Shown here: one piece after another, positions 1 to 64,000 of the stretch | Position numbering within the stretch: the stretch's first letter is position 1 | Layout: every line of letters begins with the position of its first letter | Origin: Anaerolineae bacterium | Lineage (GTDB): Bacteria > Chloroflexota > Anaerolineae > Anaerolineales > E44-bin32 | Direction of reading: 5' to 3' | Assembly (NCBI GenBank): GCA_011192015.1 | Contig: DUET01000078.1 | Span: 14,854-78,853 of the forward strand | Length of the DNA: 64,000 nucleotides | The notes under the pieces: generated by a model | What the model was told of the DNA's origin: nothing | Database searches by the model: none | Seen by the model: only the letters and a program-made list of their open reading frames with translations | Translations under genes and position numbers: made by a program

Positions 1-3000
1 CGAGCGCCGTTTCTCCGGCTTCTCTCCAAACCCTTCCGTCTTCAGGATTGGCTTCGAGCACCTTGGCGAAGGCGGATGCTGCGGTTGAAGTCTGACCCAA
101 ATCCCGCAAAGTCCGGGCGAAGCCAAGGGCGTAGGCGCCATCGCCCGGCCGCAATTCGGCTGCCTGCTGGACATGCGGCAAGGCGGCGTCGAGATCGGCT
201 TGCTCCGCATACATGTCCGCAAGCGTGAAATGCCAAGCGGCTTCTTCGGGCCAGGCTGCGATGGCGACATTCAAATGCTCGATGGCTCCGTTTTGATTCC
301 CCAGTGCTCGCATCGATTGCGCCATCAAGAACCGTACGAGCGGCTTCAGAACAACGTTTCTCGATGCGCCTTCGAAAACCTGGAGCGCGTGGTCATGGCG
401 TCCCATTTGAGCCAGCGCATGTCCGGACAGCAGAGCGGCCCATCCTGTTTGAGAATCCATGCCGATGTGAGCCTGCAATACTTCAAGAGCCTGCTCGGGA
501 CGACTGGCGCGCATGTAGGCGATGGCCAGGCCCTCTGCAGTTTCAGGATCAGCGTTCAGGCTCAGATGCGATTCGAGCGCAGCCAGGCTCTCCGCTCGCA
601 CCCCGGTTGAAGCGACTTTCACTCGCAAGCGAAGCAGCTCTAGATCCGATGCCGCTTCTTCAACATCCTGGACCTCGCTTAACAAAGTTTCAAGATCTTC
701 GAGCGTCGAGGACGCAAGGCACGCTTCTCCGGGAGCATGCGCTTGCGCTTCGCAGGCAACGGCGTACAACCAGTACGCATCCAAAACGCGCAGGCATGTG
801 CGGGTGTACATGAGAAATGCTTGCGTTTCCCCGCTTTCCTTGAGCCATTCCTGTGTGGCCTTCAACGCCTCATCCCAGTGTCCAAGACGAAGGGCGGCCT
901 GAGCGAGTGCACCGACGTCCTGGGTGGACTTGGGCGTCAAACTGCCTGCATCGATCAGGGCCTCTTCGGAGGCTTGGATGTCGCCCGTATGCAGCGCAGC
1001 GACGGCGCGCAGGGCATGCACAGAAGGAGGTGCTTCGCTTTGAACGCAGGCCTGCTTCAAGGTCTCGTGAGCTTCATCGGATCGATTGAGATCCAGGAGG
1101 CATTTGGCATATGCCTCCACGGTATCCAGGCGCTCGGGTTCTAGATTTACGGCTTGCTGCAGCGTCTCAATTGCCTCCTCATGCCTTCCAGCGTGATGCG
1201 CTGCTGTTCCGGCTTCGAGGGCCAGTTGCACATCGTTGGGCTTTATTTGCCGGGCCAAAGCAAGATGGTTCAAACCCCGCTCGCTTTCTCCACTCACGGT
1301 CAACGCCCGGCCAAGGGCGGCGTGGATTTCTGCGTTGCCCGGATCGAGCTCCAATGCACGCTGCCAGAAATCGATGGCTTCCTTGGATCGTTTCCGATTC
1401 CAGAGAATGCATCCGGCGCGCTGCAGAGGATCGCTGCTCTCAGGTTCAAGTTCGGTAATGCGCATCCACGAATGTTGGGCGGTTTGCCAATCTTCATTTT
1501 GTTCGGCCAACACAGCGAGCTTCCGCAGCAGCGAGGCGTCGTTGGGCTGTGCTGCCACGGCATGCTGGAGCATCCGCTTTGCCGGGCGCATGGCTCCGAG
1601 ATCGAGAAGCATGGCCGCGGATTGCTGAAGCACACGAGCGTCTCTGCGCGCCAGGCCCACGGCGCGCGCGATCGAATTTCGAGCCTGTGATTCTTGTCCA
1701 GCCTGGACTGCCATGCGGGCCAATTCAAGCCACGCCTCGACATCGTCGGGTTTCTTGTGTGTCAGATCCCGACCGGCTTGCAGAGCGAGATCCCATGCTT
1801 CCGTCGCTTCTGCCGCGCGAGCCAGCTGGCGAAGGTTGGTCTCCGAATCGGGATCGATTTCCAACGCCTTGCGGGCCAAATCCAGGCTCTTGTTTGCATC
1901 CCCGGCACTCAGGAAGGCCTTTGAGAGCTCGGTCTGCAGCTCGAGAGAATTAGGATAGTGATCGATGGCGGTTTCCAGCGTCGTGATCGCCTGCTCCGTG
2001 TCGCCCTCGAGGATCTGTGATCGCGCCAGACCGATCGTAGCCCGGCGGTGAAGATCGGATCCCTGGGAGGCGTGATCCAGGCAGGCCTGGAAGGTTTGGA
2101 TGGCTTCTGAAGTATGTCGAGACAATAGGTGGGCCATCGCCAACCAATACCTAAGGTTTGGATCCTCGCTTCCCCCTACACTGGCGCGTTCGAGATGGGC
2201 AAGACCGGTTTCGAGGGCAGTGATGTCACCATCCTGTACGGCTTGGATGGCGATGCGTCCCACGATCAAGTAGGTGTGTGCATCCTGATCTTCAGGGATG
2301 TGTCCCAGAATGGACCATGCCCTGCGAATCTCCCCACGTCGTTCATAAGCCTCGGCCAATTTTCGACGGATCAGCCAGTGTGCGGGTTGCTGCTGATAGG
2401 AATCCTGAAGCAACTGCAGGGCTTCCTGCCCGCGCTCCAAGGCGGCGAGCAATTCGACGCGACGGATCAACCAATCTGCTCGATCCGTTTCCAACCGCGT
2501 GCCTTCTTCCGCCGCCTCAAGCGCTTCGCTCAATCGACCGTTGGATTGCAGCCACCGGGAAAATGCCATGTGGAGGGAGCCGCATTCCGGTGCAGCTTGA
2601 ACGCCATTTTCCAGGGTCGTGCCCACCTTCAACTCATCGTTTACCTGCGCATGGGAATCCGCCAGCGCCAACCAGGCTTCAGCAAGGCGCGAATCCTTCT
2701 GGAGCGCTTCTTCGAGCTGGGTTTGTGCGCTTGCAACATCACCCCCGGCCAGCAACGCTTTGGCATACAGCACCTTCGTGGGCGCATCCTCTGGTTGAGC
2801 ACGCAGGGCAGTTTGAGCCGATTGTTTTGCGAGATCGATCTCCCCGGCTTCGAGAGCACTGGAGATCAGATCCGTCAGGTGGGCGGAGTCCGCTTGGGAA
2901 AGCGTCTGCCAATGAGCCAGCGCGGCTGTGGATTGACCGGATTCCTGAAGGCGGATCGCAAGGGAGCGGCGGGCGTCTTTCGAGTTAGGCGCCAGGGCAA

Positions 3001-4291
3001 GCGTCAGGTGAGCCTCCTGCGCGGAGGCAGTAAGATCACCTGCATCCGCAAGGAGTTGGGTGAGGGCGATGCGTGCTTGCAGATCGCAAGGCGCTGCTGC
3101 GAGGCGGTTGCGGGCGATGGTCAATGCTTGACCCATCTCTCCGATGGCTTTCAATCCGTCTGCGAGCCATGCCAACCATCGTCCATCGTGCTGCTCCATG
3201 CAAGCCGAGGCTTGGGCTGCGCTGTTCAAGAACTGAGCTGCCTGTGCACGGTATCCCAATTTGAGTCGGATGAGACCGGCGGCGATCGATTCCTCCGAGC
3301 ACTCCAGATCCTCAGGAAGTGTGTTCAGCGCCTCTTTCGTACGGCCCATTTCGAGCAGGGCCATGGCGAGCCATGCCCGGCGGCGAGGGGTGGGTTCAGC
3401 ACGCAGCGCCTTCCGTCGTGCTTCAACCTCGAGCACGGGATTGTGTTCCGCTCGCGCCAGTTCGGCGAGCTGCTCGGCTACAACGCTCGTGGATTTGACA
3501 GCGGTGGACCAAGCTCGTTCGAGGAAGTCATGAGCTGATTGGATCTCGTCTTCGGCTTGCTTGCAGGCTGCCTGGGAGAGAAGATGATCGAGGCGATCCC
3601 TACGAGCGTTCTTACTCGGGGAAGCCGGAGATGGAGTGCATAAAGCAGCCAATGCGGACGCCAGGCCGGATTCGCCGATTTCCTGCAGCATGAGGAAAGT
3701 TCGGGCGGAGGGTTGCGGCTGAGCTGTCAACCAGAACTTGGCGGCTTCTTCGAGAGAGAGGTTGGCAAGCAGGCTGTTGGCTGCCAGCATGATCCCTTGG
3801 GGCTGCTCGGCGCTGATCAAGCCCGACAACGTTTGCGTGCTGGCGGGTAGGACCATCCAGGCGCAAGCCATGGGCGAGCGCCAAGTGCGCGGCGCTGCAA
3901 GAACAAAGGATGCCAACCGTTCAGGCCCTTGCTGTTCGCTGGCCTTGTTGACAAGCGCCATGGCGAGCAACTGCACTTCCCCCAGATCGGGATCCGGAGG
4001 CACGGCATGCAGCGCTCGATGCCATACGCTTTCCTGCCTGGCAATCAACTCATCCGAGAGCGGTCCCATGACCGTGGTTTCCGGTTCTAAACGGTCGAGG
4101 GCAAGGAGCCCCAACTGAGCGGGTGAAAAAGGTGCTGGGAGTTGGGACTCACGCACGCGATTCAGAAATGCTTGATCGTGCAGACGCTGCCATGCCTCTG
4201 GCACTCTCAGGTTGCGTTCCAGGACGCGTGCGATCTCTCCAGGAGAGAGCCAATTGCTCAGTGCAGCGAGGACCTGTGCGTCGTTGAGCAT
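1..4291 (-). CDS. Large TPR-repeat protein (>1,430 aa; C-terminus lies beyond the left window edge)
   Basis: Absent from the ORF track because it has no stop codon inside the window. The minus-strand frame is open from ATG 4291-4289 (GAGG 7 nt upstream) down to position 1. The frame is consistent at both ends (lowest codon base = 2 mod 3). Hand translation starts MLNDAQVLAALSNWLSPGEIARVLE. Near the left edge it reads AWHFTLADMYAEQADLDAALPHVQQAAELRPGDGAYALGFARTLRDLGQ, which is repeated 34-residue TPR-type helix pairs. The + strand ORFs at 173-4118 are antisense shadows. Confidence 0.8.
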   Translation of the reverse strand, partial: MLNDAQVLAALSNWLSPGEIARVLERNLRVPEAWQRLHDQAFLNRVRESQLPAPFSPAQLGLLALDRLEPETTVMGPLSDELIARQESVWHRALHAVPPDPDLGEVQLLAMALVNKASEQQGPERLASFVLAAPRTWRSPMACAWMVLPASTQTLSGLISAEQPQGIMLAANSLLANLSLEEAAKFWLTAQPQPSARTFLMLQEIGESGLASALAALCTPSPASPSKNARRDRLDHLLSQAACKQAEDEIQSAHDFLERAWSTAVKSTSVVAEQLAELARAEHNPVLEVEARRKALRAEPTPRRRAWLAMALLEMGRTKEALNTLPEDLECSEESIAAGLIRLKLGYRAQAAQFLNSAAQASACMEQHDGRWLAWLADGLKAIGEMGQALTIARNRLAAAPCDLQARIALTQLLADAGDLTASAQEAHLTLALAPNSKDARRSLAIRLQESGQSTAALAHWQTLSQADSAHLTDLISSALEAGEIDLAKQSAQTALRAQPEDAPTKVLYAKALLAGGDVASAQTQLEEALQKDSRLAEAWLALADSHAQVNDELKVGTTLENGVQAAPECGSLHMAFSRWLQSNGRLSEALEAAEEGTRLETDRADWLIRRVELLAALERGQEALQLLQDSYQQQPAHWLIRRKLAEAYERRGEIRRAWSILGHIPEDQDAHTYLIVGRIAIQAVQDGDITALETGLAHLERASVGGSEDPNLRYWLAMAHLLSRHTSEAIQTFQACLDHASQGSDLHRRATIGLARSQILEGDTEQAITTLETAIDHYPNSLELQTELSKAFLSAGDANKSLDLARKALEIDPDSETNLRQLARAAEATEAWDLALQAGRDLTHKKPDDVEAWLELARMAVQAGQESQARNSIARAVGLARRDARVLQQSAAMLLDLGAMRPAKRMLQHAVAAQPNDASLLRKLAVLAEQNEDWQTAQHSWMRITELEPESSDPLQRAGCILWNRKRSKEAIDFWQRALELDPGNAEIHAALGRALTVSGESERGLNHLALARQIKPNDVQLALEAGTAAHHAGRHEEAIETLQQAVNLEPERLDTVEAYAKCLLDLNRSDEAHETLKQACVQSEAPPSVHALRAVAALHTGDIQASEEALIDAGSLTPKSTQDVGALAQAALRLGHWDEALKATQEWLKESGETQAFLMYTRTCLRVLDAYWLYAVACEAQAHAPGEACLASSTLEDLETLLSEVQDVEEAASDLELLRLRVKVASTGVRAESLAALESHLSLNADPETAEGLAIAYMRASRPEQALEVLQAHIGMDSQTGWAALLSGHALAQMGRHDHALQVFEGASRNVVLKPLVRFLMAQSMRALGNQNGAIEHLNVAIAAWPEEAAWHFTLADMYAEQADLDAALPHVQQAAELRPGDGAYALGFARTLRDLGQTSTAASAFAKVLEANPEDGRVWREAGETAL

Positions 4292-4307
4292 GGAGTAGCC
4301 TCGCGAT

Positions 4308-4643
4308 TTAGACGATGACCCATTCGATCTGTTGCAACACCCAATAGGAAGCGACAAGGAAGACCATGCCTAGAGACACCAGGAATACACCCACACCTGT
4401 CGCTGTTCGGACCAATTGGTTGATGGATGACACCAGGTCCGACGCGCTGTTGACCAGGCCGGTGAACTCATCAGCCATTCCCTTGCGTCCGAGTCGAGCG
4501 GAATGGGCCGCCAGCGTGCGGACCTCGCTTGAATATCCGCGGCTGATCAGCACGAAGGCTCCGAGGATGATGCAAATGCAACCCAGGATGAAGACGGAAG
4601 CTGCGATCAAGATCTGCATGTCGGTCAATGTAAGCGGAATCAT
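4308..4643 (-). CDS. Small two-TM membrane protein (111 aa), unknown function
   Basis: ATG at 4643 lies 5 nt after AGGAGG. There are two hydrophobic helices (ILIAASVFILGCICIILGAFVLI and GVGVFLVSLGMVFLVASYWVL) flanking a polar segment of about 45 aa. The stop codon is 16 nt before the TPR start. The track ORF (4308..4682) starts further upstream, inside the promoter. Confidence 0.6.
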   Translation of the reverse strand: MIPLTLTDMQILIAASVFILGCICIILGAFVLISRGYSSEVRTLAAHSARLGRKGMADEFTGLVNSASDLVSSINQLVRTATGVGVFLVSLGMVFLVASYWVLQQIEWVIV

Positions 4644-4648
4644 TTTTA

Positions 4649-4671
4649 CCTCCTGATTCTGAATCAGGAGG
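4649..4671 (-). promoter_or_regulatory. Perfect 10-bp hairpin whose 3' arm contains the Shine-Dalgarno of the 111-aa gene
   Basis: The minus strand reads CCTCCTGATT-CAG-AATCAGGAGG, then TAAAA, then ATG. There is no U-tract, so it is not a classical intrinsic terminator. Confidence 0.55.
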
Positions 4672-4677
4672 CATAGT

Positions 4678-4693
4678 TGCAAGGAGTGTGCCA
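4678..4693 (-). promoter_or_regulatory. Sigma-54 (-24/-12) promoter
   Basis: The minus strand reads TGGCACACTCCTTGCA, a perfect match to TGGCAC-N5-TTGCA with GG-N10-GC spacing. It begins 8 nt after the activator stop codon and sits 35 nt upstream of the 111-aa gene start. The predicted TSS is near 4667. Confidence 0.75.
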
Positions 4694-4701
4694 GAGGGGG
4701 T

Positions 4702-5877
4702 TTACTTGGTTTTCTGTCGGAACTCGGGAGCTAGGTGGCCGAGATCGATTTCGTCTTCGTCGCAGAAGAGCATGGCGCGCTCGATGACGTGACGCAATTC
4801 GCGGATGTTGCCGGGCCAATCATGAGCCTTGAGGGCATCGATCGCACGGGTTGTGATCCCGGTGACAGCATTGCCTGTGCGTTGATTGATCTGGCGGATG
4901 AATGTGCCCACGAGGGCGGGGATGTCGACGATGCGCTCGCGGAGCGGAGGTAGATGCAGATCGACGACCTTGAGCCGGTAATACAGATCTTCCCGGAATC
5001 GACCTTCGGAGATCATCGTGGGGATGTCTCTGTTGGAGGCCGCCAGGATCTGTGTGTCGACTGTGATCTCGTTCACACCGCCTACGCGCCGGAAGCGTTG
5101 TTCATCCAGGACTCGCAGCAGCTTGGCTTGCATGTCCGGTTTGGTGGAGGAAATCTCGTCCAGGAAGAGGATCCCACCGTCGGCGACCTCGATGAGCCCC
5201 GGTTTTCGCTTCGTGGCGCCAGTGAACGCACCAGCCTCGTGGCCGAAGAGTTCCGACTCGATCATGGTTTCAGGAAGGGCGGGGCAGTTGATGGGGACCC
5301 AAGGTTTTTCGGCGCGGGGGCCCATTTCTCGGATGGCCTGCACGAGGACTTCCTTGCCGGTTCCGGTTTCCCCGGTGACCAGCACCGAGGCTTCTGCGGC
5401 TGCGGCGCGTTCGGCTTCGTTGACAACGCGCTTCATGACCTCGGTTTCTCCGACGACCATTTCCACACTCGAGCCCGTGGCGCGCCGCAGCATATCGAGC
5501 TCACGCCGCAGCGCAACGATCTCTCCCGATCGGGCGATCGCATCCAGGAGCTGTTCGAGGTCGAGCGGTTTCTGCAGGAAATCCTGGGCGCCCTTCTTCA
5601 TGGCTTCGACGGCGATGTCCACATCGCCATGAGCTGTGATCAGGATCACGGGAGGGCGAGGATTTTCAAGCGCCAGGCGGTCTAGAAGGGTCAAACCCGA
5701 CCCATCCGGGAGCTGGACATCAAGCAGGATGATGTCGGCAGCCCCGGAATCGACGACCTTATGCGCGCTGGCCAAATCGCCGGCTTCGAGGGCTTCGTAA
5801 TCCGCATCCTTCAAGGCTTCGCAGATGAAATCGCGTGCCGAGTCTTCGTCGTCGACGACAAGAATGGTTACGCTCAT
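4702..5877 (-). CDS. Sigma-54-dependent response regulator (REC + AAA+), lacking a C-terminal DNA-binding domain
   Basis: Receiver domain: VVDDEDSARD...ILLDVQLPDGSG. Walker A: GETGTGKE. Sigma-54 contact loop: GAFTGA. Sensor II: WPGNIRELRHVIERA. The protein ends about 20 aa later (391 aa total), leaving no room for a Fis-type HTH. Confidence 0.9.
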   Translation of the reverse strand: MSVTILVVDDEDSARDFICEALKDADYEALEAGDLASAHKVVDSGAADIILLDVQLPDGSGLTLLDRLALENPRPPVILITAHGDVDIAVEAMKKGAQDFLQKPLDLEQLLDAIARSGEIVALRRELDMLRRATGSSVEMVVGETEVMKRVVNEAERAAAAEASVLVTGETGTGKEVLVQAIREMGPRAEKPWVPINCPALPETMIESELFGHEAGAFTGATKRKPGLIEVADGGILFLDEISSTKPDMQAKLLRVLDEQRFRRVGGVNEITVDTQILAASNRDIPTMISEGRFREDLYYRLKVVDLHLPPLRERIVDIPALVGTFIRQINQRTGNAVTGITTRAIDALKAHDWPGNIRELRHVIERAMLFCDEDEIDLGHLAPEFRQKTK

Positions 5878-5880
5878 GAT

Positions 5881-7854
5881 CTAGCCTTTCTTCTCTACTC
5901 CAACGGCCGGAACGCGAATGGTAAAGATCGTTCCAGTACCGGGATAACTCTCGACATCGATCGATCCCTTATGCGCCGTGAGGATACGCCGGGTGATGGC
6001 AAGTCCCAGTCCGGTTCCCTCCTTCTTCGTGGTGAAGAACGGATCGAAGATGCGTCCGAGGATGTCGGGGGGAATGCCGGGACCGGTGTCAGCAATCTTC
6101 AATTCGACCAACGAATCCTGGGAGGTGGTGAGTGGGGCGAGGGAGAAGGTCAGGGAACCTCCCTTCGGCATGGCTTGGAGGGCATTGCTGATCAAGTTGA
6201 CGATCACCTGTTCGAACGTACGTGGATCGACAGCGGTCATCGGCAGGTTCTCGGCAAAGGACATGTGGCACTGAACCTTGGCCAACTCCATGCGCGGCTT
6301 CCAGCGTGCGATCAAACGCTGCAGCAGCCCACTCAGGCGCAGCGGTTCCATCTTGAGCTCGAGAGGGCGTGCGAAGAAGAGCACATCGCTGAGAAGCTGG
6401 TCGAGACGCGTGCATTCCTTGCGCAGGCGATCGAGCGAGGCGTAATGCTCGCTGTCCTTGCCCAGGCGTGAGGCCACAAGCTGAACGCCCATGCTGATGT
6501 TGTTGATCGGATTGCGCACCTCGTGGGCAAAGATGGCCGTGACCTCACCAAGCAGGGCGCGTTGCGTCAAGGTCTCCTGCTGTTCTACCAGAGCCTGGCG
6601 CTCGGATTGGTCGACGAGCGTGACCAGCAGGTGGTTGCCAGCCGGAGCGCTTGTGGGGACGGCGCGGAGTTGAACCGGGAACGGCCTGCCGTTGCGACGA
6701 TGAATGGTGATCAATTGACGTTCAGCCGCTCGCTTGTGCCCCACGGCGTCCAGCAGTGTCGCCAGCGCGTCTTCGGGACCCACAAGAACATCCTTCACAG
6801 GCAGCCCCGTCAACTCATCCATGCGGTAACCCAGCATATCTGCGGCTGCCGGATTGGCGCGAACCACGCACATGCTCTCGTCCAGCACAAGCAGGGCTTC
6901 GGTCAAGGCCGAAGATTGATCCGTGAGCTCGTTCCTGATCCGCTCGATGTTGGATCGTAAATTCTCAATGGACTGGCGCTGGAGGTTGAGCTGCATGGTG
7001 GCGTGGCAGAGATTGGCGAGGATGTTCATCAGCGCTTCGGCTTCCCGCGGAGCCTGTTCCTTCGTTTTCCAGCATGCAACCAGGATGCCGACCCAGGCCC
7101 GGGGCTCTCCCAGGGAAGCTGTACGCAGGAGTTCCATCTTGGCCACCCTGGCCGCCCTCTGCAGGACTCGGTCGGGTCGGTTGCCGAGTGACCACGAACT
7201 GGAAGGGCCCATGGGTGCTAATTCGGAAGCTGGAAGCGTGCGGGGGAATTCGGGGGGAAGCTCTCCTTCGAGTTGATAATCCGGGGAAGTTGGCGAGACG
7301 CGATAGAGCGCAACGTGTGTGGCGCCGAGCATCTCAGCCGCTTGAGACAGAGTCCGGTCGAGATCGGTGATGGTTCCTTCTTCGAGCATGTTGGAGAGCT
7401 TGGCCAAAGCCTGCAGGCGGATGCGTTCGGCATGAAGCCGGGTTTCCTCCAGGCGTCTTTGCGACAGGGGACGGATGGTGAGAAGCAAGGCGCGGCCGGT
7501 GGTCACCGGTTGTGCAAGCAGATCCACGGCTATCAGGTTGCCTTCGTAACCCTTGAGGAGAATGTCCTTCAAATGGCAATCCTGGTTCTGCCAGGTCTCG
7601 CGCAGGCGCTGGAGTGCCTGCTCACCTTTTTCGTCTGGAAAGAGGGCGGAAGGAAGGAGGTTTTGGAGATCTGCACGAGCGTACCCGGTGAGCAAAAGGA
7701 AGGCGTGGTTGCAGGTGAGAATGCGCTTTCCGTCGGCGTCCAGAACGAGAAGCGCCTGATCGAGCGAATCGGCCAGAACGCGAAATGCCTCGCGTAGTGG
7801 ATCGGGCTTCAGCAGCCTGGTGATCAAGTTGTCGCTGGACCGGTTGCTAGGCAA
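5881..7854 (-). CDS. Soluble multi-PAS/GAF sensor histidine kinase
   Basis: H-box FAHEVRNPINNI, N-box LISNALQAM, G-boxes DTGPGIP and GTGLGLAI. The N-terminal ~430 aa have no TM segments and include PAS-like repeats. There is a 3-nt gap to both neighbours. Confidence 0.9.
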   Translation of the reverse strand: MPSNRSSDNLITRLLKPDPLREAFRVLADSLDQALLVLDADGKRILTCNHAFLLLTGYARADLQNLLPSALFPDEKGEQALQRLRETWQNQDCHLKDILLKGYEGNLIAVDLLAQPVTTGRALLLTIRPLSQRRLEETRLHAERIRLQALAKLSNMLEEGTITDLDRTLSQAAEMLGATHVALYRVSPTSPDYQLEGELPPEFPRTLPASELAPMGPSSSWSLGNRPDRVLQRAARVAKMELLRTASLGEPRAWVGILVACWKTKEQAPREAEALMNILANLCHATMQLNLQRQSIENLRSNIERIRNELTDQSSALTEALLVLDESMCVVRANPAAADMLGYRMDELTGLPVKDVLVGPEDALATLLDAVGHKRAAERQLITIHRRNGRPFPVQLRAVPTSAPAGNHLLVTLVDQSERQALVEQQETLTQRALLGEVTAIFAHEVRNPINNISMGVQLVASRLGKDSEHYASLDRLRKECTRLDQLLSDVLFFARPLELKMEPLRLSGLLQRLIARWKPRMELAKVQCHMSFAENLPMTAVDPRTFEQVIVNLISNALQAMPKGGSLTFSLAPLTTSQDSLVELKIADTGPGIPPDILGRIFDPFFTTKKEGTGLGLAITRRILTAHKGSIDVESYPGTGTIFTIRVPAVGVEKKG

Positions 7855-7857
7855 CGC

Positions 7858-9273
7858 TCATACCTTGCTCATGGATTTGGATCGTTGCTTGTGGCGAAGA
7901 CGGGCCGGCAGGATGCCCTCCATGGCACGATACTTGGCCACAGTTCGTCTCGCCACTTGGATCCCTTCGTCGTTGAGTATCTCGACGATCTGGTCGTCGG
8001 TGAGCGGTTTCTGCTCCAAGGCGATGATTTCACGAATGGTGTCGCGAATGGGAAGACTGCGATCGAAGAATCTTGACAGCGGAATGATGCGCCCGTCAGG
8101 AAGGGCCACGGATTTATGGGCGACGGCTCGTGAGACTGTAGACTCATGCACATCAAGCCGTTCCGCAAGGTTGGCGCGGGTCATGGGGTGCAGGTGCCGG
8201 GGTCCGTGCAGAATGAAATCTCTCTGTTCACTCACCAGGATCTTCATCATACGCCGCATGGTCTGGTTGCGCTGCTGCAGGCACTTCACGAACAGCGCAG
8301 CTCTCTCCAAATGCTGGGACCAATCCTCAGAAACGGATTCAGGCTTCTGTTTCACAGCCTGGCGGAAGAGGGGATTGACCCTCAACCAGCCGCGATGAGC
8401 CGAGAAGATCTCCACCTGCAGCGGGCCGTCTTCATCGGATGAACTGGGGGAAATCTGGATGTCGGGATTGTGGTAGACATTCGGATCGGCGCTTTGGCGT
8501 TGTTTCCCCGATCCCCAGTAGGCACGTGCGGGATAGGGATTCAAATTCTGTTGGATGAAATCTGCCGCCTGGCGCACACTGTGGGAGGAAGCCTCCAGGC
8601 GCTTGGCGATGACGTCGTACTCGCGGCGACCCAACTCGGAGAATGTCTGCTCAAGCATGCGGCGTGCCAGTTTTGCATTGGGGACCATGTCCTCGAGCAG
8701 ATCCAATTGTACGAGCAATGCCTGACGAGGACCTTCGGAAGCCAATCCTGGAGGATCAGCACGAGCGATCAAATCCAGCACGCGCGTCACTTGCGAGGGC
8801 ATGCTGCGTGTGGTGCGGGCGATCATCGCCGGATGATCGGTTAGGAAGCCGTCCTCATCCAGGCTGGAGAGCAAGTAGGCGGCGAGGGAGCGATCTTCAG
8901 GCAACAATTCGGCCGCCAATTGCTGCAGGACATAGGTGCTCAGATCCTCCGGCGCAGCGGGTTCCCGATCGGGAAGATCCTCCTCAAGGCGTGGGGTGCT
9001 TGAGAAGCGTATTGATTCGCGAGGAGAGAGGAAGACGACGGGTTCATCGTTGCCGTTGCGCAAACTGCAGACCGGGCAGGGTCCGGGTCGATCCAGGGGA
9101 CGACGGCAGCCTGGACAAACACGCCTGTCGATCAGCTCCAAGGCGGGATTGGAGGCAAGCTCCGTCTGGATGGTCTCCCGCAATTCCAGATTGGAGAGCG
9201 CCAACAGCGTCATGGTCTGGGCGAGGTGAGCCGTCGTAAGCGGTCTTTGAGATTGATCTTGGACTTGTAACAT
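7858..9273 (-). CDS. rpoN: RNA polymerase sigma-54 factor
   Basis: C-terminal RpoN box ARRTVAKYRAMEGI. Region I is Gln/Leu-rich (MLQVQDQSQRPLTTAHLAQTMTLL). The start is taken at ATG 9273 (GAGG 6 nt upstream); the track ORF extends to 9318. Confidence 0.9.
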   Translation of the reverse strand: MLQVQDQSQRPLTTAHLAQTMTLLALSNLELRETIQTELASNPALELIDRRVCPGCRRPLDRPGPCPVCSLRNGNDEPVVFLSPRESIRFSSTPRLEEDLPDREPAAPEDLSTYVLQQLAAELLPEDRSLAAYLLSSLDEDGFLTDHPAMIARTTRSMPSQVTRVLDLIARADPPGLASEGPRQALLVQLDLLEDMVPNAKLARRMLEQTFSELGRREYDVIAKRLEASSHSVRQAADFIQQNLNPYPARAYWGSGKQRQSADPNVYHNPDIQISPSSSDEDGPLQVEIFSAHRGWLRVNPLFRQAVKQKPESVSEDWSQHLERAALFVKCLQQRNQTMRRMMKILVSEQRDFILHGPRHLHPMTRANLAERLDVHESTVSRAVAHKSVALPDGRIIPLSRFFDRSLPIRDTIREIIALEQKPLTDDQIVEILNDEGIQVARRTVAKYRAMEGILPARLRHKQRSKSMSKV

Positions 9274-9352
9274 GGCAAGCCTCGGCGTGAGTATACAGGA
9301 GTTATCGTTGGTATGCAATCATGTTGCAAGTTCCATGCCGGATTGTGCGTGA

Positions 9353-11743: not shown

Positions 11744-13150
11744 ATGAGTAAAATCTCTCTTCCAACGGAGCTTCCCCGAGAGCGCGCCTTCTTGGTAGGT
11801 GTCGAACTGCAAACCGAGCCAGGTCTGCTCGCTATGAGCGATTCCTTGAGCGAGCTTGCCTTGCTGGCGGATACGGCGGGTCTTGTGGTCGTCGGTCAAA
11901 CATCGCAGCGTCTTCAACGTCCCAATCCAAAGACCTACATTGGTTCAGGCAAGGTCCAGGAAGTGCGTAAATTGGCTGAAGAAGCCATGGCGGATGTGAT
12001 CCTTTTCGATGTCGAATTATCGCCGAGGCATCAGCGCGAGCTGGAACGGATCTTCGAAGCTGGCAAACGCCTGGGGGAGGGCATGCGGGTCATCGATCGA
12101 ACAGCCTTGATCCTGGACATCTTCGCCCAGCACGCGCATACGCGCGAAGGCTCGCTGCAGGTGGAGCTGGCGCAGCTGGAATATCGGCTGCCGCGCCTTA
12201 CTCGAGCCTGGACTCACCTTGCCCGGCAGGCCGGTGGAGGTGGGGGGCGCGCCGGTCGATCCGGAGGCGTAGGATTGCGGGGACCTGGAGAGACTCAGAT
12301 CGAGGTTGACCGGCGAGAGATCGGGCGCCGAATCGCACATTTGCGTGAAGAGCTGGAGAAAGTGCGCGCCCATCGATCTCGCTACCGCACCCGGCGCCAA
12401 CGAGCCGATATCCCCACTGTGGCTCTCGTGGGTTACACCAATGCAGGAAAATCCACGCTCCTGAACCGGCTTTCTGGATCGGACGTTTTGGTGGCCGATC
12501 AGCTCTTCGCTACCCTGGATCCCACAACACGGCGCGTCGAACTGCCCGAAGGTCAAGCGGTCTTGATCACGGATACAGTGGGTTTCATCCAGAAACTTCC
12601 TACGACACTCGTCGCCGCGTTCCGGGCTACGCTGGAGGAAATCGTTGAGGCCAATCTGCTGCTGCATGTTGTGGATGTGAATCATCCCAATGCGCTGCAG
12701 CAGGCTGAAGCTGTACGCACGACACTTGCGGAGATCGACGGCATGGGTATACCGGTGGTAACGGCTCTGAACAAGATCGATCTTCTGGATGGTTCTCAAA
12801 GGGTCGACGAGATCGAATATGAATTCGATTCAGCGGTGCGCATATCTGCCACGAAGGGTGAGGGCATTCCTGAACTCATGACGGTCCTCGAGAGGGAGTT
12901 GTATGAGGCCATGGTGCAGATCGAGGTCTTTCTTCCTTACAGCGCCATGGCGCTTCAGAGCCTCATGCACGCGGAGGGAAGTGTGGAGTTTACCGAACAC
13001 AAGCAGGACGGTGTACTGATCCGCGGCCGAATCCCCAAACAACTCGTGGCGAAGTTCCGGAAATACCGCATGCCGAAGCATGCTGCGGTCCTGCCTCCGG
13101 ATGCCGACCTTGACGGCCCAGCGCCAGATGTCCAGCAAGACCCTGCTTGA
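11744..13150 (+). CDS. hflX: GTPase HflX
   Basis: HflX N-domain (GSGKVQEVRKLAEE...). G1 GYTNAGKSTLLN, G3 DTVGF, G4 NKID. Confidence 0.92.
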   Translation: MSKISLPTELPRERAFLVGVELQTEPGLLAMSDSLSELALLADTAGLVVVGQTSQRLQRPNPKTYIGSGKVQEVRKLAEEAMADVILFDVELSPRHQRELERIFEAGKRLGEGMRVIDRTALILDIFAQHAHTREGSLQVELAQLEYRLPRLTRAWTHLARQAGGGGGRAGRSGGVGLRGPGETQIEVDRREIGRRIAHLREELEKVRAHRSRYRTRRQRADIPTVALVGYTNAGKSTLLNRLSGSDVLVADQLFATLDPTTRRVELPEGQAVLITDTVGFIQKLPTTLVAAFRATLEEIVEANLLLHVVDVNHPNALQQAEAVRTTLAEIDGMGIPVVTALNKIDLLDGSQRVDEIEYEFDSAVRISATKGEGIPELMTVLERELYEAMVQIEVFLPYSAMALQSLMHAEGSVEFTEHKQDGVLIRGRIPKQLVAKFRKYRMPKHAAVLPPDADLDGPAPDVQQDPA

Positions 13151-47838: not shown

Positions 47839-49464
47839 TTAGAAGATCCTTTCTCCGATCACATCTGGAATGATTGCATTTCCATTCATCCTGCTTCTCC
47901 AGACAACCGACTCATAACCTCTTCCTGCCGACAGAGCAAACGAAAACGCGGCTCGAATTCCCTCGCTGCCTCTCATCATCGCATAGAAGTCCAAATATTC
48001 ATTCGCCTTTTGAAGGCTGCCGACATCCGAGGCAACGTTGCAGAATTCCGTCACCATCAGTGGCTTCTTTGGAAACCGCAATCGATAATCCTCATACGCT
48101 CGGCCGCCCTGCATGGACATCATGCTTTCCGTATCCATCCAGTGGCAGTTCACTCCGATCCAGTCCGCTTCCATGGCCGCGTTTTCGGCGCCTTCGAGGA
48201 ATTCGATTGCGCCCATTCGATGACCTGTCAGCCTCCCGCCTGGTGACAAACCCGGGAATCCAAAACCAGCGTCCGGATACAACGCTCTCAGTTTGGTAAT
48301 CACCGTCAGAAACCAATCTCCGAACGCCTTCCCATCACTCCAGCCTTGCGCCCATCCTTTGGAAAACAGATTCGGTTTGCTATGCACCTCGAATTCCATG
48401 ACGCCCGATCGATAGAGCCTGCCCACATCGATTTCGATCCTGCTCAAGAATGATGCTGCATGCCAGTCATCGATTCCGTTACTTCCTTGGATGCGCGCCA
48501 CCAGCAGCATGTCAGGATGGACGCTCTTCAGTCTATCAATACTTTCCTTGTCCTCATGAAGCGATATCTTCACGGCCTCCATCCTCGCCTTTTCAATGGC
48601 CTTGAAATCCTCCTCCATCAGCGAGCCATCGATCCTTCCATGCACACCGATCAAACACTTTTCCGCATCTCTGGGTATGGATTTCACAACCTTTGGATCT
48701 GCATCGTCCGGCCATACCAGAAACGGTGTTGGGTCGATCACGTCATTGGGGTAATCGGTTTCCCCGCATTCGGTCGCGCCATCCTTTTGAAGTGTCAGAT
48801 GCAGATGATTCCCGCATGAGGCTCCCGTAGTGTCCGCCAATCCGATGACATCCCCGGCTCCAACCGCCTGTCCTTGCGAGACCAAGGCCTGCATCAAGTG
48901 TGCATAGATTGTGGCATATCCGCCCTCGTGTCCGACTCGAACATGAACTCCGTAGTCATGATCGGTTGGATTTTCATGCACTTCCAGCACATGGCCGTCC
49001 GCACAACAGAATACCTTGCTTCCCATCAAGGCTCGGAAATCCACTCCATCATGCCCCGGCAGACCCTGCTCCCCATAGATCAACGGATTCGACCCAAAGG
49101 ATTGGGTGATCATCGGGAATTCCGTCGGCCAGACAAGTCTGAGTTCGATTTCCTCGACACCATATCGATTCGATGTCTCCAAGCGATACTGAAGGATTTG
49201 TCTCAATTCGCCCGGAGTAAGCGCCTGGATCGGATCCAGCTTCACGTTGGCATGATGGTTTTGGAACCACAGTTGGATATCTCCCTGCTCGGGAAACTCG
49301 TTTCCACCCGTGATCAGGGTTACCGTTTGCCTGGGGCTCATATGCCGGGCTGCAGCTTCGGGATCGTGAGTCATGACGGCCCCAAAGGTCATGACATATT
49401 CCTTGCATGCCCTCACCCAGGACCAATAATCCTTCTGCGGAAGCAGGATGATCTGCTTTTCCAC
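47839..49464 (-). CDS. M23 (LytM-type) peptidase fused to a C-terminal TIM-barrel glycosidase-like domain; no signal peptide
   Basis: M23 motifs HDGVDF and CGNHLHLTL. GTG 49464 lies 7 nt after GGAGG. The track ORF start (49563) lies on top of the sigma-54 promoter. Confidence 0.8.
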   Translation of the reverse strand: MEKQIILLPQKDYWSWVRACKEYVMTFGAVMTHDPEAAARHMSPRQTVTLITGGNEFPEQGDIQLWFQNHHANVKLDPIQALTPGELRQILQYRLETSNRYGVEEIELRLVWPTEFPMITQSFGSNPLIYGEQGLPGHDGVDFRALMGSKVFCCADGHVLEVHENPTDHDYGVHVRVGHEGGYATIYAHLMQALVSQGQAVGAGDVIGLADTTGASCGNHLHLTLQKDGATECGETDYPNDVIDPTPFLVWPDDADPKVVKSIPRDAEKCLIGVHGRIDGSLMEEDFKAIEKARMEAVKISLHEDKESIDRLKSVHPDMLLVARIQGSNGIDDWHAASFLSRIEIDVGRLYRSGVMEFEVHSKPNLFSKGWAQGWSDGKAFGDWFLTVITKLRALYPDAGFGFPGLSPGGRLTGHRMGAIEFLEGAENAAMEADWIGVNCHWMDTESMMSMQGGRAYEDYRLRFPKKPLMVTEFCNVASDVGSLQKANEYLDFYAMMRGSEGIRAAFSFALSAGRGYESVVWRSRMNGNAIIPDVIGERIF

Positions 49465-49544
49465 TTCTTTACCTCCACGGTGCGTTACTCGACTTGAACG
49501 AGATCGTCTTTTCCTCCCAAGTTCCGATCCTGCTTTGTCTCTGT

Positions 49545-49560
49545 TGCAGGGAATGTGCCA
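49545..49560 (-). promoter_or_regulatory. Sigma-54 (-24/-12) promoter
   Basis: The minus strand reads TGGCACATTCCCTGCA, with correct GG-N10-GC spacing and 14/16 identity to the promoter at 4678-4693. It is about 80 nt upstream of GTG 49464. Confidence 0.7.
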
Positions 49561-49589
49561 CATTCCTCCGCTGATTTCTTTCCTCAGGA

Positions 49590-49622
49590 TGGAAAAACGC
49601 CTGCCTATTTTTCTACAGGCGT
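49590..49622 (-). terminator. Rho-independent terminator of radC
   Basis: The minus strand reads ACGCCTG-12 nt-CAGGCGT followed by TTTTTCC. Confidence 0.7.
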
Positions 49623-49670
49623 CTCTCGCTTCGCCGTGTTGATTCTGTTGTTTTAATCATGCATTCAATC

Positions 49671-50372
49671 TCACTCGAATCCCAATCCCCTTGTTTTCAA
49701 AGAAACGAAGCGCGCTTTGCCGATCACCAGATGGTCCAGCACCTCGATGTCCAGCAGTTTTCCGGCATCCACGATCGATCGTGTCAGAGCTACATCTTCT
49801 GGACTGGGCGTAGGGTCTCCGGAGTGGTGATTGTGGGCCACAATCACGGCCGCGGCGTTGCTTCGCACCGCCTCGCGCAGGACCTCGCCAATGCGCACGA
49901 GCGAGCTGTTCAGCGATCCGTGGTAAACCTCCACAATGCGCATCAAGCGATTGCGTGTATCAAGCAGCAGCACACGCAGATGCTCCTGCTCCAGCGCGCC
50001 CATCTCGTAGAGCAACAGACTCGCAGCATCCTCTGGAGATTGGATGATCGGCTGTTCGTCCGGCGTAGCTATGGCGAAACGGTTCCCCAATTCGATCGCT
50101 GCTTTGAGTTGTGAGGCTTTAGCCGGACCGATTCCCCTGAATGCGCAGATTTCCTCATAGCTGGCCCTGTGAAGCCCTGTCAAGCCTCCGAATTGCAGGA
50201 TCAGTGTTTGGGCCATCTGCAAGGCGTTTTTTCCTTCGATTCCCGATCGAAGCAGAATGGCAATCAATTCTGCATTCGAAAGCGCTGTCGCTCCGTGCAT
50301 CGCCAGACGTTCCCGTGGGCGATCGGCGCTTGCAAGATCCGTGATCCTATAGCTCGTGTGTCGATCCCCCAT
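49671..50372 (-). CDS. radC: RadC-family JAB/MPN domain protein
   Basis: N-terminal RPRERL...[18 protein letters not shown]-like [15 protein letters not shown]. Confidence 0.88.
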
Positions 50373-50459
50373 GGCAAACTCCCTTCTCCACTCCCCCTAT
50401 CCAAAATCGGCTTCCTGAGAATAGTCGATCACGGTACGGAAGTTGCAGCCTTGCGATCA

Positions 50460-50468
50460 TGCTATAAT
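50460..50468 (+). promoter_or_regulatory. Extended -10 promoter TGCTATAAT
   Basis: The exact 9-mer is 20 nt upstream of ATG 50489, with GGGAG in between. Confidence 0.5.
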
Positions 50469-50488: not shown

Positions 50489-50980
50489 ATGTCCGCAAGC
50501 ACTCAACCCCTCCAACTTGATGCCGCGCTCCTGTACCTGACCGCATTTTCGGCTGCGTTTCTGACTGCATTGTGGCTCAGTCTTGTGTTTTGGGCCTATC
50601 GCGACATCCGTTCACGCGCTCAGGACCGTCTTCTTCATATCCTGGCCGCTGCCATCGTGCTCCTGCTCGGACCGGCAGGTCTGGTGATCTACCTCATCCT
50701 TCGTCCACGACGAACGCTCGATGAGGTCTATCAAAACACGCTTGAAGAGGAAGCTCTGCTGACCGAAATCGAGGAAAGCCCTACCTGTCCTGGTTGTGGT
50801 GCTCGATCCCAACATGATTGGCAAATCTGCCCACAGTGTCACACCAGGCTTCGCAAACCCTGCATCTCCTGCGGCAGTTTGATGGATCTCCATTGGAAGA
50901 TCTGCCCCTACTGCGCCATTCCCGCACCGGGCATGCACACCGTCAATGAAAATTCCACTCCGGATCTTCCCGCAGGCTAG
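50489..50980 (+). CDS. Membrane protein with PLDc_N-like TM pair and C-terminal double zinc ribbon
   Basis: Two TM helices, then CPGCG...CPQC...CISCG...CPYC. Confidence 0.7.
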   Translation: MSASTQPLQLDAALLYLTAFSAAFLTALWLSLVFWAYRDIRSRAQDRLLHILAAAIVLLLGPAGLVIYLILRPRRTLDEVYQNTLEEEALLTEIEESPTCPGCGARSQHDWQICPQCHTRLRKPCISCGSLMDLHWKICPYCAIPAPGMHTVNENSTPDLPAG

Positions 50981-62719: not shown

Positions 62720-63829
62720 CTAATCCCTCTGAAAGGCCAGCAGCTCAATCGTGATTCGCTCGAAGAAACTCCTGGGCGGCAGAACCCCTTCTCCATAGAC
62801 ATAGTCTACGACCCGAGCTTGAACTTCAATCGATGCTGTTTGAAGATCCACAACTCCCCCGCTCTCCACCAACACAGGATCTCCCTTGGCGGCAAGGCGG
62901 GTTCGCGTCGAATTATCATCGAAGGCGTACTGACTCAAGATAACTTTGGTAACGGTTTGGATGTCGTTCTTATCGAAGAGCCAAACTTCAAAGGATGAAA
63001 TCTTCCTGGCTCCATCCACACCGATTACATCTGCGATACCAACACCACACTCACCCAGGAAGTCCCCAGTTGCACTCTCGATGCTGAAGGCGTCGTCGTA
63101 TGAATCGTCGCCGAGATTGTAAGTCGTACGGAATGTCGCCAACGGTTCCCTCATAGGAGGCGCTGGCTTCTCAAGATCTACGACGGGTTCGGCCAGGACT
63201 TCCTCCAATGCCTGCGCCGGCTGCGGTTGATAGTGTTCCTGTGTGGAAATCATTCTGGATCGTTTCGCCAGTACGAATGCAATCAGAAATCCAACGAGAA
63301 CGATCACACCGCCAACGGGCAGTATCACCCGCCATGCACTCGCGCGTTCGGTTGATTCGGGCACTGCCGGCTCGAAGACGTCATCGCCTGAGACGGGAAG
63401 CGTGATCACAGCTCGGAAATTCTGGATAGCGGAGGGGTCCACCAATCCCGGATCCGCACCGATTGCTTCCAGGACACTTTCCCCGTACTCTCCGAGTTCC
63501 TCATAGCGCTGGATGGCCAAACCTATTTCGCGATTGACGGAGTAGGAATCCACTGCCATACGGAGATAGTCTTCACGCAGATCCTGACGAAGTGTATCCG
63601 GCGTGGTGTCAATCACGTTGAGCGGATCGATGAGCCACGCATAGATGAGCCCCAATGCAATCCCCAACACCAGGGTTGCGACCGGCAAGACCCACTTTCG
63701 TTCGAACAGGCCTTTTAGAGCATCCATAGCCTTGCCCCTCAATACGCCCATCTCTTCGACTCCATTGCTCCACATCCACAAGCATTCATTCCCGTTGTGT
63801 ATTGTAGAGCTACAAATCTTGCAAGACAA
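62720..63829 (-). CDS. Two-TM membrane protein with ~170-aa C-terminal domain, unknown function
   Basis: The ORF has TM helices WVLPVATLVLGIALGLIYAWLI and VILPVGGVIVLVGFLIAFVLA. The real start is probably an internal Met (MGVLRGK or MDALKGLF). Confidence 0.6.
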   Translation of the reverse strand: MSCKICSSTIHNGNECLWMWSNGVEEMGVLRGKAMDALKGLFERKWVLPVATLVLGIALGLIYAWLIDPLNVIDTTPDTLRQDLREDYLRMAVDSYSVNREIGLAIQRYEELGEYGESVLEAIGADPGLVDPSAIQNFRAVITLPVSGDDVFEPAVPESTERASAWRVILPVGGVIVLVGFLIAFVLAKRSRMISTQEHYQPQPAQALEEVLAEPVVDLEKPAPPMREPLATFRTTYNLGDDSYDDAFSIESATGDFLGECGVGIADVIGVDGARKISSFEVWLFDKNDIQTVTKVILSQYAFDDNSTRTRLAAKGDPVLVESGGVVDLQTASIEVQARVVDYVYGEGVLPPRSFFERITIELLAFQRD

Positions 63830-63846
63830 TCGCTAGGTTGCATCTA

Positions 63847-64000
63847 TCATGCCAGATCTTCAGTTTTCGATTCCAGCGCTTCGACTGCGTAGCGCTGCTT
63901 GCATTCCATACACACTGCTTCTTGGGGGCCATCCCGTACAAGCAATCCCCCACATCCAGGACAGGCCATGGGGAGCGGCTTTTTCCAACTTGTGAAATCG
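63847..64000 (-). CDS. C-terminal zinc-ribbon segment of a gene running off the right edge (or a 40-aa zinc-ribbon protein)
   Basis: The minus frame is open from the window edge to TGA at 63849-63847. It reads DFTSWKKPLPMACPGCGGLLVRDGPQEAVCMECKQRYAVEALESKTEDLA (CxxC...CxxC). It is not in the ORF track. Confidence 0.4.
   Translation of the reverse strand, partial: DFTSWKKPLPMACPGCGGLLVRDGPQEAVCMECKQRYAVEALESKTEDLA

Follow-up and report, generated by a model that had tools for sequence, protein, structure and literature searches.

We analysed a 64,000-nucleotide (nt) stretch of the genome of an Anaerolineae bacterium (Chloroflexota; Anaerolineales; contig DUET01000078.1, positions 14,854 to 78,853 of the forward strand), referred to below as the window, and found in it a -24/-12 element of the sigma-54 (RpoN) type upstream of a gene for a cell-envelope hydrolase of 541 amino acids (aa). 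We put the probability at roughly two in three that this element, at 49560-49543 on the minus strand, is a working sigma-54 promoter which transcribes, on its own, the hydrolase gene with its start codon GTG 49464. The narrower claim that the element is a sigma-54 promoter is highly probable; its promoter activity is what we infer from the sequence. The features of the spacer and of the two genes that flank it are as follows.

49543..49560, minus strand: sigma-54 -24/-12 element TGGCACATTCCCTGCAAC, with GG at 49559-49558 and GC at 49547-49546
47839..49464, minus strand: hydrolase gene, 541 aa, with a GTG start and its stop at 47841-47839; GTG and GGAGG are conserved in relatives
49465..49534, minus strand: predicted 5' untranslated region of about 70 nt, with Shine-Dalgarno GGAGG at 49476-49472
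49590..49627, minus strand: radC intrinsic terminator (hairpin and U-run), which divides radC from the hydrolase gene
49671..50372, minus strand: radC (RadC-like JAB domain), the upstream same-strand neighbour of the hydrolase gene in 77/84 related loci

The core of the element, TGGCACATTCCCTGCA at 49560-49545, has GG-N10-GC spacing and continues as ...TGCAAC. It agrees with TGGCAC-N5-TTGCA at 10/11 specified positions, the sole departure being C for T at -14. A search of the window for TGGCAC-N5-YTGCW returned exactly two perfect matches, this one and TGGCACACTCCTTGCA at 4693-4678, both on the minus strand, both intergenic and both directed toward the next gene; shuffled sequences gave a chance expectation of 0.23 matches per window, with two or more in 3/100 shuffles. 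The two sites are identical at 14/16 positions and differ at the other two. When one mismatch was allowed, seven matches were found in the window against 4.3 expected, which is not significant, and the other five lay within open reading frames (ORFs). The hydrolase site is located 3' of the radC terminator (13-bp stem and U-run, -23.3 kcal/mol, z = -3.4) and 80 nt upstream of GTG 49464, on the same strand as the gene, and GGAGG precedes the GTG with a 7-nt spacer. Transcription is predicted to start near 49534. A preceding reading of this DNA, made from the sequence only, had claimed a GG-N10-GC motif at this position, its 14/16 identity to the distant site, and its placement after the radC terminator and about 80 nt before a GGAGG-7 nt-GTG start; all three claims were confirmed.

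The promoter assignment was also supported by a phylogenetic footprint. For comparison we took the contigs on which the closest homologues lie, together with 80 genomic loci of GTDB representatives; 84 related loci were counted. The promoter is kept in seven orthologous loci of related, uncultured Anaerolineales, whose proteins are 86% (L082), 76% (L081), 58% (L148, from the metagenome scan described below) and 56-58% (L059, L083, L084 and L085) identical to the window hydrolase; the contig of L082 begins inside the promoter motif. The spacer between radC and the hydrolase gene is 170-240 nt long in these loci and has diverged beyond recognition outside the terminator, the GGAGG/GTG and the promoter block. 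This block reads TGGCACAyTnnnTGCAAC, that is TGGCACATTCC[A/G/C]TGCAAC, or TGGCACACTATGTGCAAC in L084. Hairpins of differing sequence take the same place as the radC terminator in the relatives. Within 200 nt upstream of the family genes in the 84 loci, the strict motif occurs six times in the sense orientation and never in antisense, compared with 17 occurrences on both strands of the rest of the 1.8 Mb of related loci, which is a 38-fold higher density.

The position of the start codon matters here because the ATG of a longer, 574-aa ORF (49563-49561) abuts the TGGCAC of the promoter. A search of 5.8 billion proteins gave 319 relatives of the hydrolase at E <= 1e-5. Among the best 120 of these 319, nearly all are 541 aa long and cover 94% of the 574-aa ORF, i.e. 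from the GTG onward, and conservation in the alignment begins at residues encoded just past the GTG (xxQIILLP...). The few homologues with longer annotated N-termini have mutually dissimilar extensions. The DNA of 49465-49563 shows no coding-type conservation, and relatives carry unequal deletions in it (roughly 30-40 nt in L083 and L084). Because almost all homologues are 541 aa long, GTG 49464 is taken as the correct start and the 574-aa ORF as an artefact. The view that this ORF only appears longer is consequently borne out; homologues with a conserved N-terminal extension over 49465-49563, which would have spoken against it, were looked for and did not appear. The leader at 49465-49534 has no Rfam match and no significant structure (z = +0.8), and a riboswitch or attenuator in it was dropped as a candidate on these grounds.

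The promoter is not a general property of the family. In most of the 84 loci the hydrolase gene begins 8-25 nt after radC, too close for a promoter to fit between them. The sigma-54 motif occurs only at gaps of at least about 70 nt, namely in the clade of the window and in L030 (strict motif); possible further cases at long gaps are L042, L046 and L048 (TGGCCCGAATCCTGCA) and L007 and L008. Since most relatives have the short gap, the promoter would represent a lineage-specific rewiring, in which a terminator and an enhancer-independent promoter were inserted into an ancestral radC-hydrolase operon. Two groups of apparent sites were rejected. The sigma-54-like TGGCCTGGGATTTGCA upstream of the gene in L033, L036, L038 and L039 lies inside radC, where it forms the codons of the conserved C-terminus G-L-G-F, and TGGCCTGGGAATTGCA in L051 and L052 is related to it and probably the same radC-coding artefact.

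A different element was observed upstream of radC itself. In 18/73 relatives with the tight operon, the radC ATG is preceded at 13-17 nt by the end of GGC-N8-TGCA (such as cGGCACGCAATTTGCA), compared with about 0.3 expected (L001, L002, L004-L006, L018, L019, L021, L022, L025, L026, L028, L029, L031, L034, L063, L067 and L071). It lies between a sigma-70-type promoter, TTGACA-N17-TATAGT, and the radC Shine-Dalgarno sequence. If this were a sigma-54 site, transcription would be predicted to start 3-7 nt before the radC ATG, giving an almost leaderless mRNA, and the whole radC-hydrolase operon would be connected to sigma-54 in those lineages.

The window also encodes a sigma-54 system, about 40 kb from the hydrolase promoter, together with further sites of the same type.

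7858..9273, minus strand: rpoN (sigma-54), with AID, CBD and DBD Pfam domains and the RpoN box ARRTVAKYR
5881..7854, minus strand: PAS histidine kinase, the presumed partner of the activator
4702..5877, minus strand: NtrC-type response regulator and sigma-54 activator, with REC, AAA+ (GAFTGA) and lid, and without a DNA-binding domain
4676..4693, minus strand: promoter 1, TGGCACACTCCTTGCAAC, 9 nt past the activator stop and ending 32 nt before the ATG of the 111-aa gene
4308..4643, minus strand: 111-aa protein with two transmembrane segments, the first gene after promoter 1
2..4291, minus strand: giant TPR-repeat protein of more than 1430 aa, which runs off the window, the second gene after promoter 1
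9325..9340, minus strand: sigma-54-type site CGGCATGGAACTTGCA(AC), 49-51 nt upstream of the rpoN ATG at 9273

The likely ATG of rpoN is at 9273, and its ORF is open to 9318. The activator (391 aa) has REC at 5-114, Sigma54_activat at 142-307 and the lid at 313-390 according to Pfam, with ESELFGHEAGAFTGA as the GAFTGA region, and its AAA+ domain is the only one of the activator type in the window. No helix-turn-helix domain was found in it: the alignment to the NtrC model covers positions 1-382 of 463, and there the protein ends. The sequence-only reading had described the activator as having no DNA-binding domain, and this description holds. An analogy with PrsK/PrsR/PrsT of PEP-CTERM systems for the kinase, regulator and TPR protein was considered and rejected, as the activator scored 342 with TIGR02915, below the cut-off of 503 and no better than with NtrC/AtoC. 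The 111-aa protein has no PHROG or Pfam match.

Promoter 1 is conserved as well. Five metagenome contigs (L123, L180, L197, L222 and L183), which are relatives of this gene cluster with 47-78% protein identity, all keep CTGGCACAyTCCTTGCAACA 34-38 nt upstream of the 111-aa gene. L123, L180 and L197 contain rpoN, the kinase, the activator, the 111-aa gene and the TPR gene, and L222 and L183 hold part of this set only. L152, a sixth contig, matches the window at 97-100% identity over the 111-aa gene and where the TPR gene begins. The site before rpoN, CGGCATGGAACTTGCAAC at 9340-9323, is weaker in the window than its orthologues in L123 (~5730-5750) and L180 (~11775-11795), which are strict TGGCAC-N5-TTGCAAC. 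Because of these strict sites, the operon looks autoregulated, and the sequences suggest that rpoN, kinase and activator are controlled through their own sigma-54-type site. The earlier suggestion of a small regulon, which had been based on two matching promoters, is strengthened by the conservation of promoter 1 in five related contigs and by the third site before rpoN. Both promoters 1 and 2 (the latter being that of the hydrolase) adjoin coding DNA or a terminator, so that an enhancer could lie only within coding DNA; this agrees with an activator that acts without DNA binding. That the 4702-5877 activator serves the hydrolase promoter is plausible, and is rated lower than the promoter assignment because the genome outside the window was not seen.

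Another site, TGGCATGATAGATGCA(AC) at 63839-63854 on the minus strand, was observed upstream of a 369-aa ORF (62720-63829, minus strand), about 45-50 nt from its likely ATG. This ORF has hydrophobic stretches and no Pfam match, and its upstream site shares the TGCAAC extension; the 369-aa ORF may be a further member of the regulon. A metagenome scan with TGGCACAYTCCNTGCAAC, aimed at further regulon members, returned matches in at least 120 contigs. The matches listed came mainly from a single low-GC marine locus that recurred and from scattered sites in high-GC organisms that are unrelated; beside these, only orthologues of promoters 1 and 2 were among them. In most of the 120 contigs, many of them marine, the exact 18-mer TGGCACACTCCTTGCAAC is present 38-39 nt upstream of a 128-aa ORF (L112-L116 and most others among L112-L231, GC about 0.40). 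Judging from its sequence and conservation, the 18-mer there is evidently a sigma-54 promoter that an abundant low-GC organism, unrelated to the present one, has strongly conserved.

The hydrolase itself consists of three parts; a 121-sequence alignment gave a confident AlphaFold2 model of it (pLDDT 87.9; the linker at residues 254-265 is disordered).

49129..49464, minus strand: N-terminal alpha/beta domain, residues 1-112, a generic Rossmann-like 2x2 fold
48706..49122, minus strand: peptidase M23 (LytM) domain, residues ~115-253, Pfam PF01551
47842..48669, minus strand: C-terminal (beta/alpha)8 barrel, clan GH-A-like, residues 266-541, with eight beta-alpha units in the model

This architecture of an N-domain without assignment, a LytM/M23 domain and a TIM-barrel glycosidase-like C-domain had been proposed from the sequence, and Pfam, AlphaFold2 and Foldseek bear it out. 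The structure prediction which had been suggested for the two outer domains gave a generic Rossmann-like fold for the former and a GH-A-like barrel for the latter. A separate model of the N-domain matched only generic Rossmann-like and designed folds in the PDB (best E = 4e-3), with no specific relative. The M23 domain scored 74.1 bits in Pfam (gathering cut-off 28.7), with PDB profile matches down to E = 5e-21 and Foldseek matches to ShyA, DipM, Csd1/2, LytM and lysostaphin (E ~1e-10); residues H138-x3-D142, H189 and H220-x-H222 are conserved in at least 120/121 aligned family sequences. The best structural matches of the barrel in Foldseek were the GH128 beta-1,3-glucanase 6uax (TM-score 0.72), GH26 lichenases and PslG. 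Its E359 in beta4 (strand 357-360) and E473 in beta7 (strand 469-476) occupy the canonical positions of acid/base and nucleophile and are conserved in 120/121 and 118/121 aligned sequences, respectively. Both the M23 peptidoglycan endopeptidase and the retaining glycosidase barrel look active.

Sequence searches with the barrel (Pfam, NCBIfam, PHROGs and PDB profiles) gave no identification, and the PDB matches at E up to 1 all fell within M23. Homologues of the barrel alone have no Pfam domain, and no sequence-level membership in a named CAZy family (GH128, GH26, GH5 or GH39) was found. From its modelled fold the barrel appears GH-A-like and is not filed in any CAZy family. It is a candidate for a new glycoside-hydrolase family within clan GH-A. 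In the whole hydrolase, Pfam found only M23 and no wall-binding module such as LysM, SH3 or PG_binding. Neither a signal peptide nor a transmembrane segment was detected, with a maximum Kyte-Doolittle hydropathy of 0.82 over 19 residues, as had been claimed, and a hydropathy scan indicated that the signal-less state holds for the bulk of the family. A literature search found no description of the hydrolase family or of sigma-54-controlled M23 genes.

The barrel family was also observed outside this architecture. Stand-alone proteins have 264-293 aa. In a 400-aa paralogue, which has no M23, the barrel (37% identity) follows about 120 aa of N-terminal sequence. In some Chloroflexota this paralogue is located between radC and a 543-aa M23 gene (L232, 6001-7203; L233, 5137-6339), which probably explains loci with radC-hydrolase gaps of 1.2-1.35 kb. 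Its N-terminal region shows weak, non-significant similarity to the N-domain (BLASTP E = 0.48). One possibility is that N-terminal region and barrel go together, and that M23 was inserted into a protein of the N-domain/barrel type.

Relatives of the hydrolase occur in phages. The viral contig L086 (IMGVR_UViG_3300031673_000822) encodes at 3873-6425 an 850-aa protein with M23 and a barrel of this family, 35% identical over residues 67-513. Its gene is the third ORF downstream of a portal gene, after a 167-aa ORF and a methyltransferase, and the product is probably a virion-associated lysin. L087 and L092 (IMG/VR) are similar, and several IMG/VR contigs encode the barrel alone. PHROG and BFVD matches included endolysins, tape-measure and internal virion proteins and GH5-like phage proteins, with the endolysin and virion-lysin families of PHROG matching the M23 part. 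The window gene has bacterial neighbours: radC and, divergent from it, a zinc-ribbon membrane gene, and also enolase, a Mem_trans carrier, a HEAT protein and RseP. This neighbourhood is syntenic across species, and no prophage or lysis cassette (holin, phage genes) was found around the gene; it is a stable chromosomal gene and not part of a prophage. The earlier remark on an endolysin-like architecture for a chromosomal gene was therefore fair, as phage relatives with M23 and TIM barrel exist and the gene lies outside a prophage.

Upstream of the zinc-ribbon gene (a double-zinc-ribbon membrane protein, 50489-50980), CGGTACGGAAGTTGCA was observed at 50432-50447 on the plus strand, 41 nt from the gene, and TGcTATAAT at 50460-50468 on the plus strand is the strong extended -10 promoter of that gene, near-universally conserved. 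The pattern YGGyCy-N5-TTGCA recurs in about 30/66 related loci at a variable distance to the -10, with TGGCACGCTCCTTGCG at this position in L007 and L008. It may be a sigma-54 site or another operator.

We propose the following mechanism. RNA polymerase with the sigma-54 encoded at 7858-9273 would bind the -24 GG/-12 GC element as a closed complex, which would open only upon ATP hydrolysis by an AAA+ activator. The best candidate is the 4702-5877 protein, which, once phosphorylated, would engage the complex from solution without binding DNA; the adjoining PAS kinase would phosphorylate it and supply the signal. The same machinery would drive promoter 1, behind which the 111-aa membrane protein and the giant TPR protein are encoded, and probably also the operon of its own genes. 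The output would be a burst of a bifunctional hydrolase acting on peptide cross-links and envelope glycan, alongside the 111-aa protein and the TPR giant. The terminator and promoter placed between radC and the hydrolase gene would turn the second gene of an operon into a signal-controlled one. Expression of this cell-envelope hydrolase would then be conditional and under two-component control, and the enzyme may remodel the wall. The closed complex and its opening by the activator draw on the sequence, its conservation and the established mechanism of sigma-54; the kinase signal and the output are what we infer.

Several observations weigh against this interpretation. The -14 position of the hydrolase promoter is C where the consensus has T, and it is variable among the orthologues. 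The hydrolase gene could alternatively be transcribed by read-through from radC, and other activators encoded outside the window may serve its promoter. The promoter is also absent from most of the hydrolase family; because most family genes sit 8-25 nt after radC without one, sigma-54 control is not essential to the role of the enzyme. With regard to the enzyme, the barrel has no sequence-level relative of known function, and a signal-less hydrolase would need some other route to a substrate in the wall.

The last point is addressed by two alternatives in which the promoter is real and the role of the enzyme is different. The hydrolase could be a domesticated phage-type lysin for programmed lysis, stored in the cytoplasm and reaching the wall once the membrane is breached, possibly by the sigma-54-co-regulated 111-aa protein acting like a holin with its two transmembrane segments. 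A two-component signal would then lead to sacrificial cell death, filament breakage or content release. None of the 121 family members has a signal peptide, which is consistent with such a role, as are the phage M23 and TIM-barrel protein (35% identity, 850 aa, near a portal gene), the stand-alone barrels in viral contigs, the PHROG matches of the M23 part and the presence of a small protein with two transmembrane segments as the first gene behind the sister promoter. Signal-less chromosomal autolysins such as CwlC/CwlH of Bacillus (sigma-K, mother-cell lysis) and pneumococcal LytA offer a precedent. However, the gene is chromosomal and syntenic with radC and the zinc-ribbon gene in 77/84 loci, many relatives with the 8-25-nt gap have the sigma-70-type TTGACA-N17-TATAGT before radC, which suggests routine expression, and the 111-aa protein, for which neither PHROG nor Pfam gave a match, has the giant TPR protein as its partner rather than the hydrolase. 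We consider such a lysin unlikely. A fuller scenario, in which a two-component-gated sigma-54 circuit in filamentous Anaerolineales would switch on a cytoplasmically stored, phage-derived bifunctional lysin that kills or opens selected cells, is a slimmer possibility still. The lysin would work with the small membrane protein and the giant TPR scaffold as a programmed lysis or filament-fragmentation module in Chloroflexota, and the relocation of the promoter (before radC in some lineages, in the radC/lysin spacer here) would mark its evolutionary capture.

If, on the other hand, the enzyme trimmed imported wall fragments (cross-linked muropeptides, wall-polysaccharide oligomers) for recycling in the cytoplasm, being without a signal peptide would be normal for it. 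The conservation of this state over the whole family and the absence of a recognisable wall-binding module (LysM, SH3, PG_binding) would suit such a role, and the paralogue with N-region and barrel but no M23 in the same operon of some genomes suggests a metabolic pair, not a weapon. Against this, every M23 match found was a wall-acting enzyme, a regulator of such enzymes or a phage lysin, the conserved neighbourhood contains no linked genes for transport or recycling, and known cytoplasmic recycling uses families other than M23. We regard recycling as doubtful. The most improbable of the alternatives is that the conserved 18-mer is not a promoter at all: another protein might bind there, the element might act at the level of the transcript, or the match might be due to chance. 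Sigma-54-like strings do occur in coding DNA, as TGGCCTGGGATTTGCA in the GLGF codons of the RadC C-terminus illustrates, and many 9/11 matches to the motif in the window are intragenic. Yet the 18-mer shows exact consensus, fixed spacing, correct orientation and suitable distance; it is conserved amid diverged surroundings, and the extended motif recurs after the activator gene and before rpoN. Neither an Rfam match nor a stable fold was found for the leader, and the chance expectation of 0.23 per window applies to both sites together. A sigma-54 promoter that places a wall-directed hydrolase under signal control is the reading we prefer.

The hydrolase promoter belongs to the well-known sigma-54 class and is nothing categorically new. 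What goes beyond routine is a self-contained rpoN-kinase-activator operon in Chloroflexota, a clear case of operon rewiring by an inserted terminator and promoter, and an uncharacterised, widespread enzyme family whose barrel is not covered by a Pfam model. In this phylum the regulons of sigma-54 are essentially uncharted, and the locus presents a concrete, conserved and testable one, a candidate regulon of the rpoN-kinase-activator operon, with its activator that contains no DNA-binding domain, and at least three matching promoters. One of its targets would be a widespread Anaerolineales family that fuses a peptidoglycan endopeptidase and a glycosidase barrel without an export signal. The locus would also show how a gene of a housekeeping operon is rewired to signal control through an inserted terminator and an enhancer-independent promoter. 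If the enzyme mediates controlled lysis or filament breakage, this would bear on multicellular behaviour in a major environmental phylum.

Among known systems, the closest regulatory parallels are CtcC of Chlamydia (with CtcB) and FlgR of Helicobacter pylori, type Ic enhancer-binding proteins without a DNA-binding domain, which are reported to activate from solution (Francke et al. 2011, PMC3162934). Sigma-54 occurs in only some members of Chloroflexota, and a theme of its targets is the 'bacterial exterior' (PMC3162934). Like CtcC and FlgR, the window activator combines REC with an AAA+ domain bearing GAFTGA, has no HTH_8 and is encoded next to its cognate kinase. By sequence it falls into type Ic, with the AAA+ sigma-54 interaction domain present and the C-terminal HTH_8 absent, and by analogy we propose that it acts from solution without an enhancer. 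Also as in these systems, the window promoters have no space for an upstream enhancer and the target set is small and cell-envelope-related, in line with the exterior theme (PMC3162934). Unlike them, the window system resides in a Chloroflexota host, its activator is in one operon with rpoN, and that operon has its own sigma-54-type site; instead of flagellar or type III genes, it would target a peptidoglycan/polysaccharide hydrolase and a giant TPR protein.

With respect to the enzyme, the M23 domain shares its fold, zinc ligands and catalytic His (HxxxD, HxH) with ShyA, DipM, LytM, lysostaphin and Csd1/Csd2. These proteins are exported or membrane-anchored, whereas the window M23 is signal-less and lies between the N-domain and the barrel. 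The barrel resembles the GH128 endo-beta-1,3-glucanase 6uax, the GH26 lichenase 2bvd and PslG (9g17) in its (beta/alpha)8 fold (TM-score up to 0.72) and in Glu on beta4 and beta7. It differs from these clan GH-A enzymes in sequence, with only 13-16% identity, and has F-E-x4-P-N in place of the usual acid/base motif N-E-P. The L086 phage lysin has M23 followed by the same barrel family, at the identity given above; the phage protein is larger (850 aa) and encoded among virion genes, whereas the window gene is chromosomal with conserved bacterial neighbours. CwlC/CwlH of Bacillus subtilis under sigma-K and LytA of Streptococcus pneumoniae are signal-less chromosomal autolysins under dedicated control. 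The window enzyme resembles them as a chromosomal wall hydrolase without an export signal, related to phage lysins and predicted to depend on an alternative sigma factor. It differs from CwlC and LytA in having M23 and a GH-A-like barrel instead of an amidase and in lacking wall-binding repeats, and most members of its family lie in the radC operon, with a sigma-70-type promoter in many relatives.

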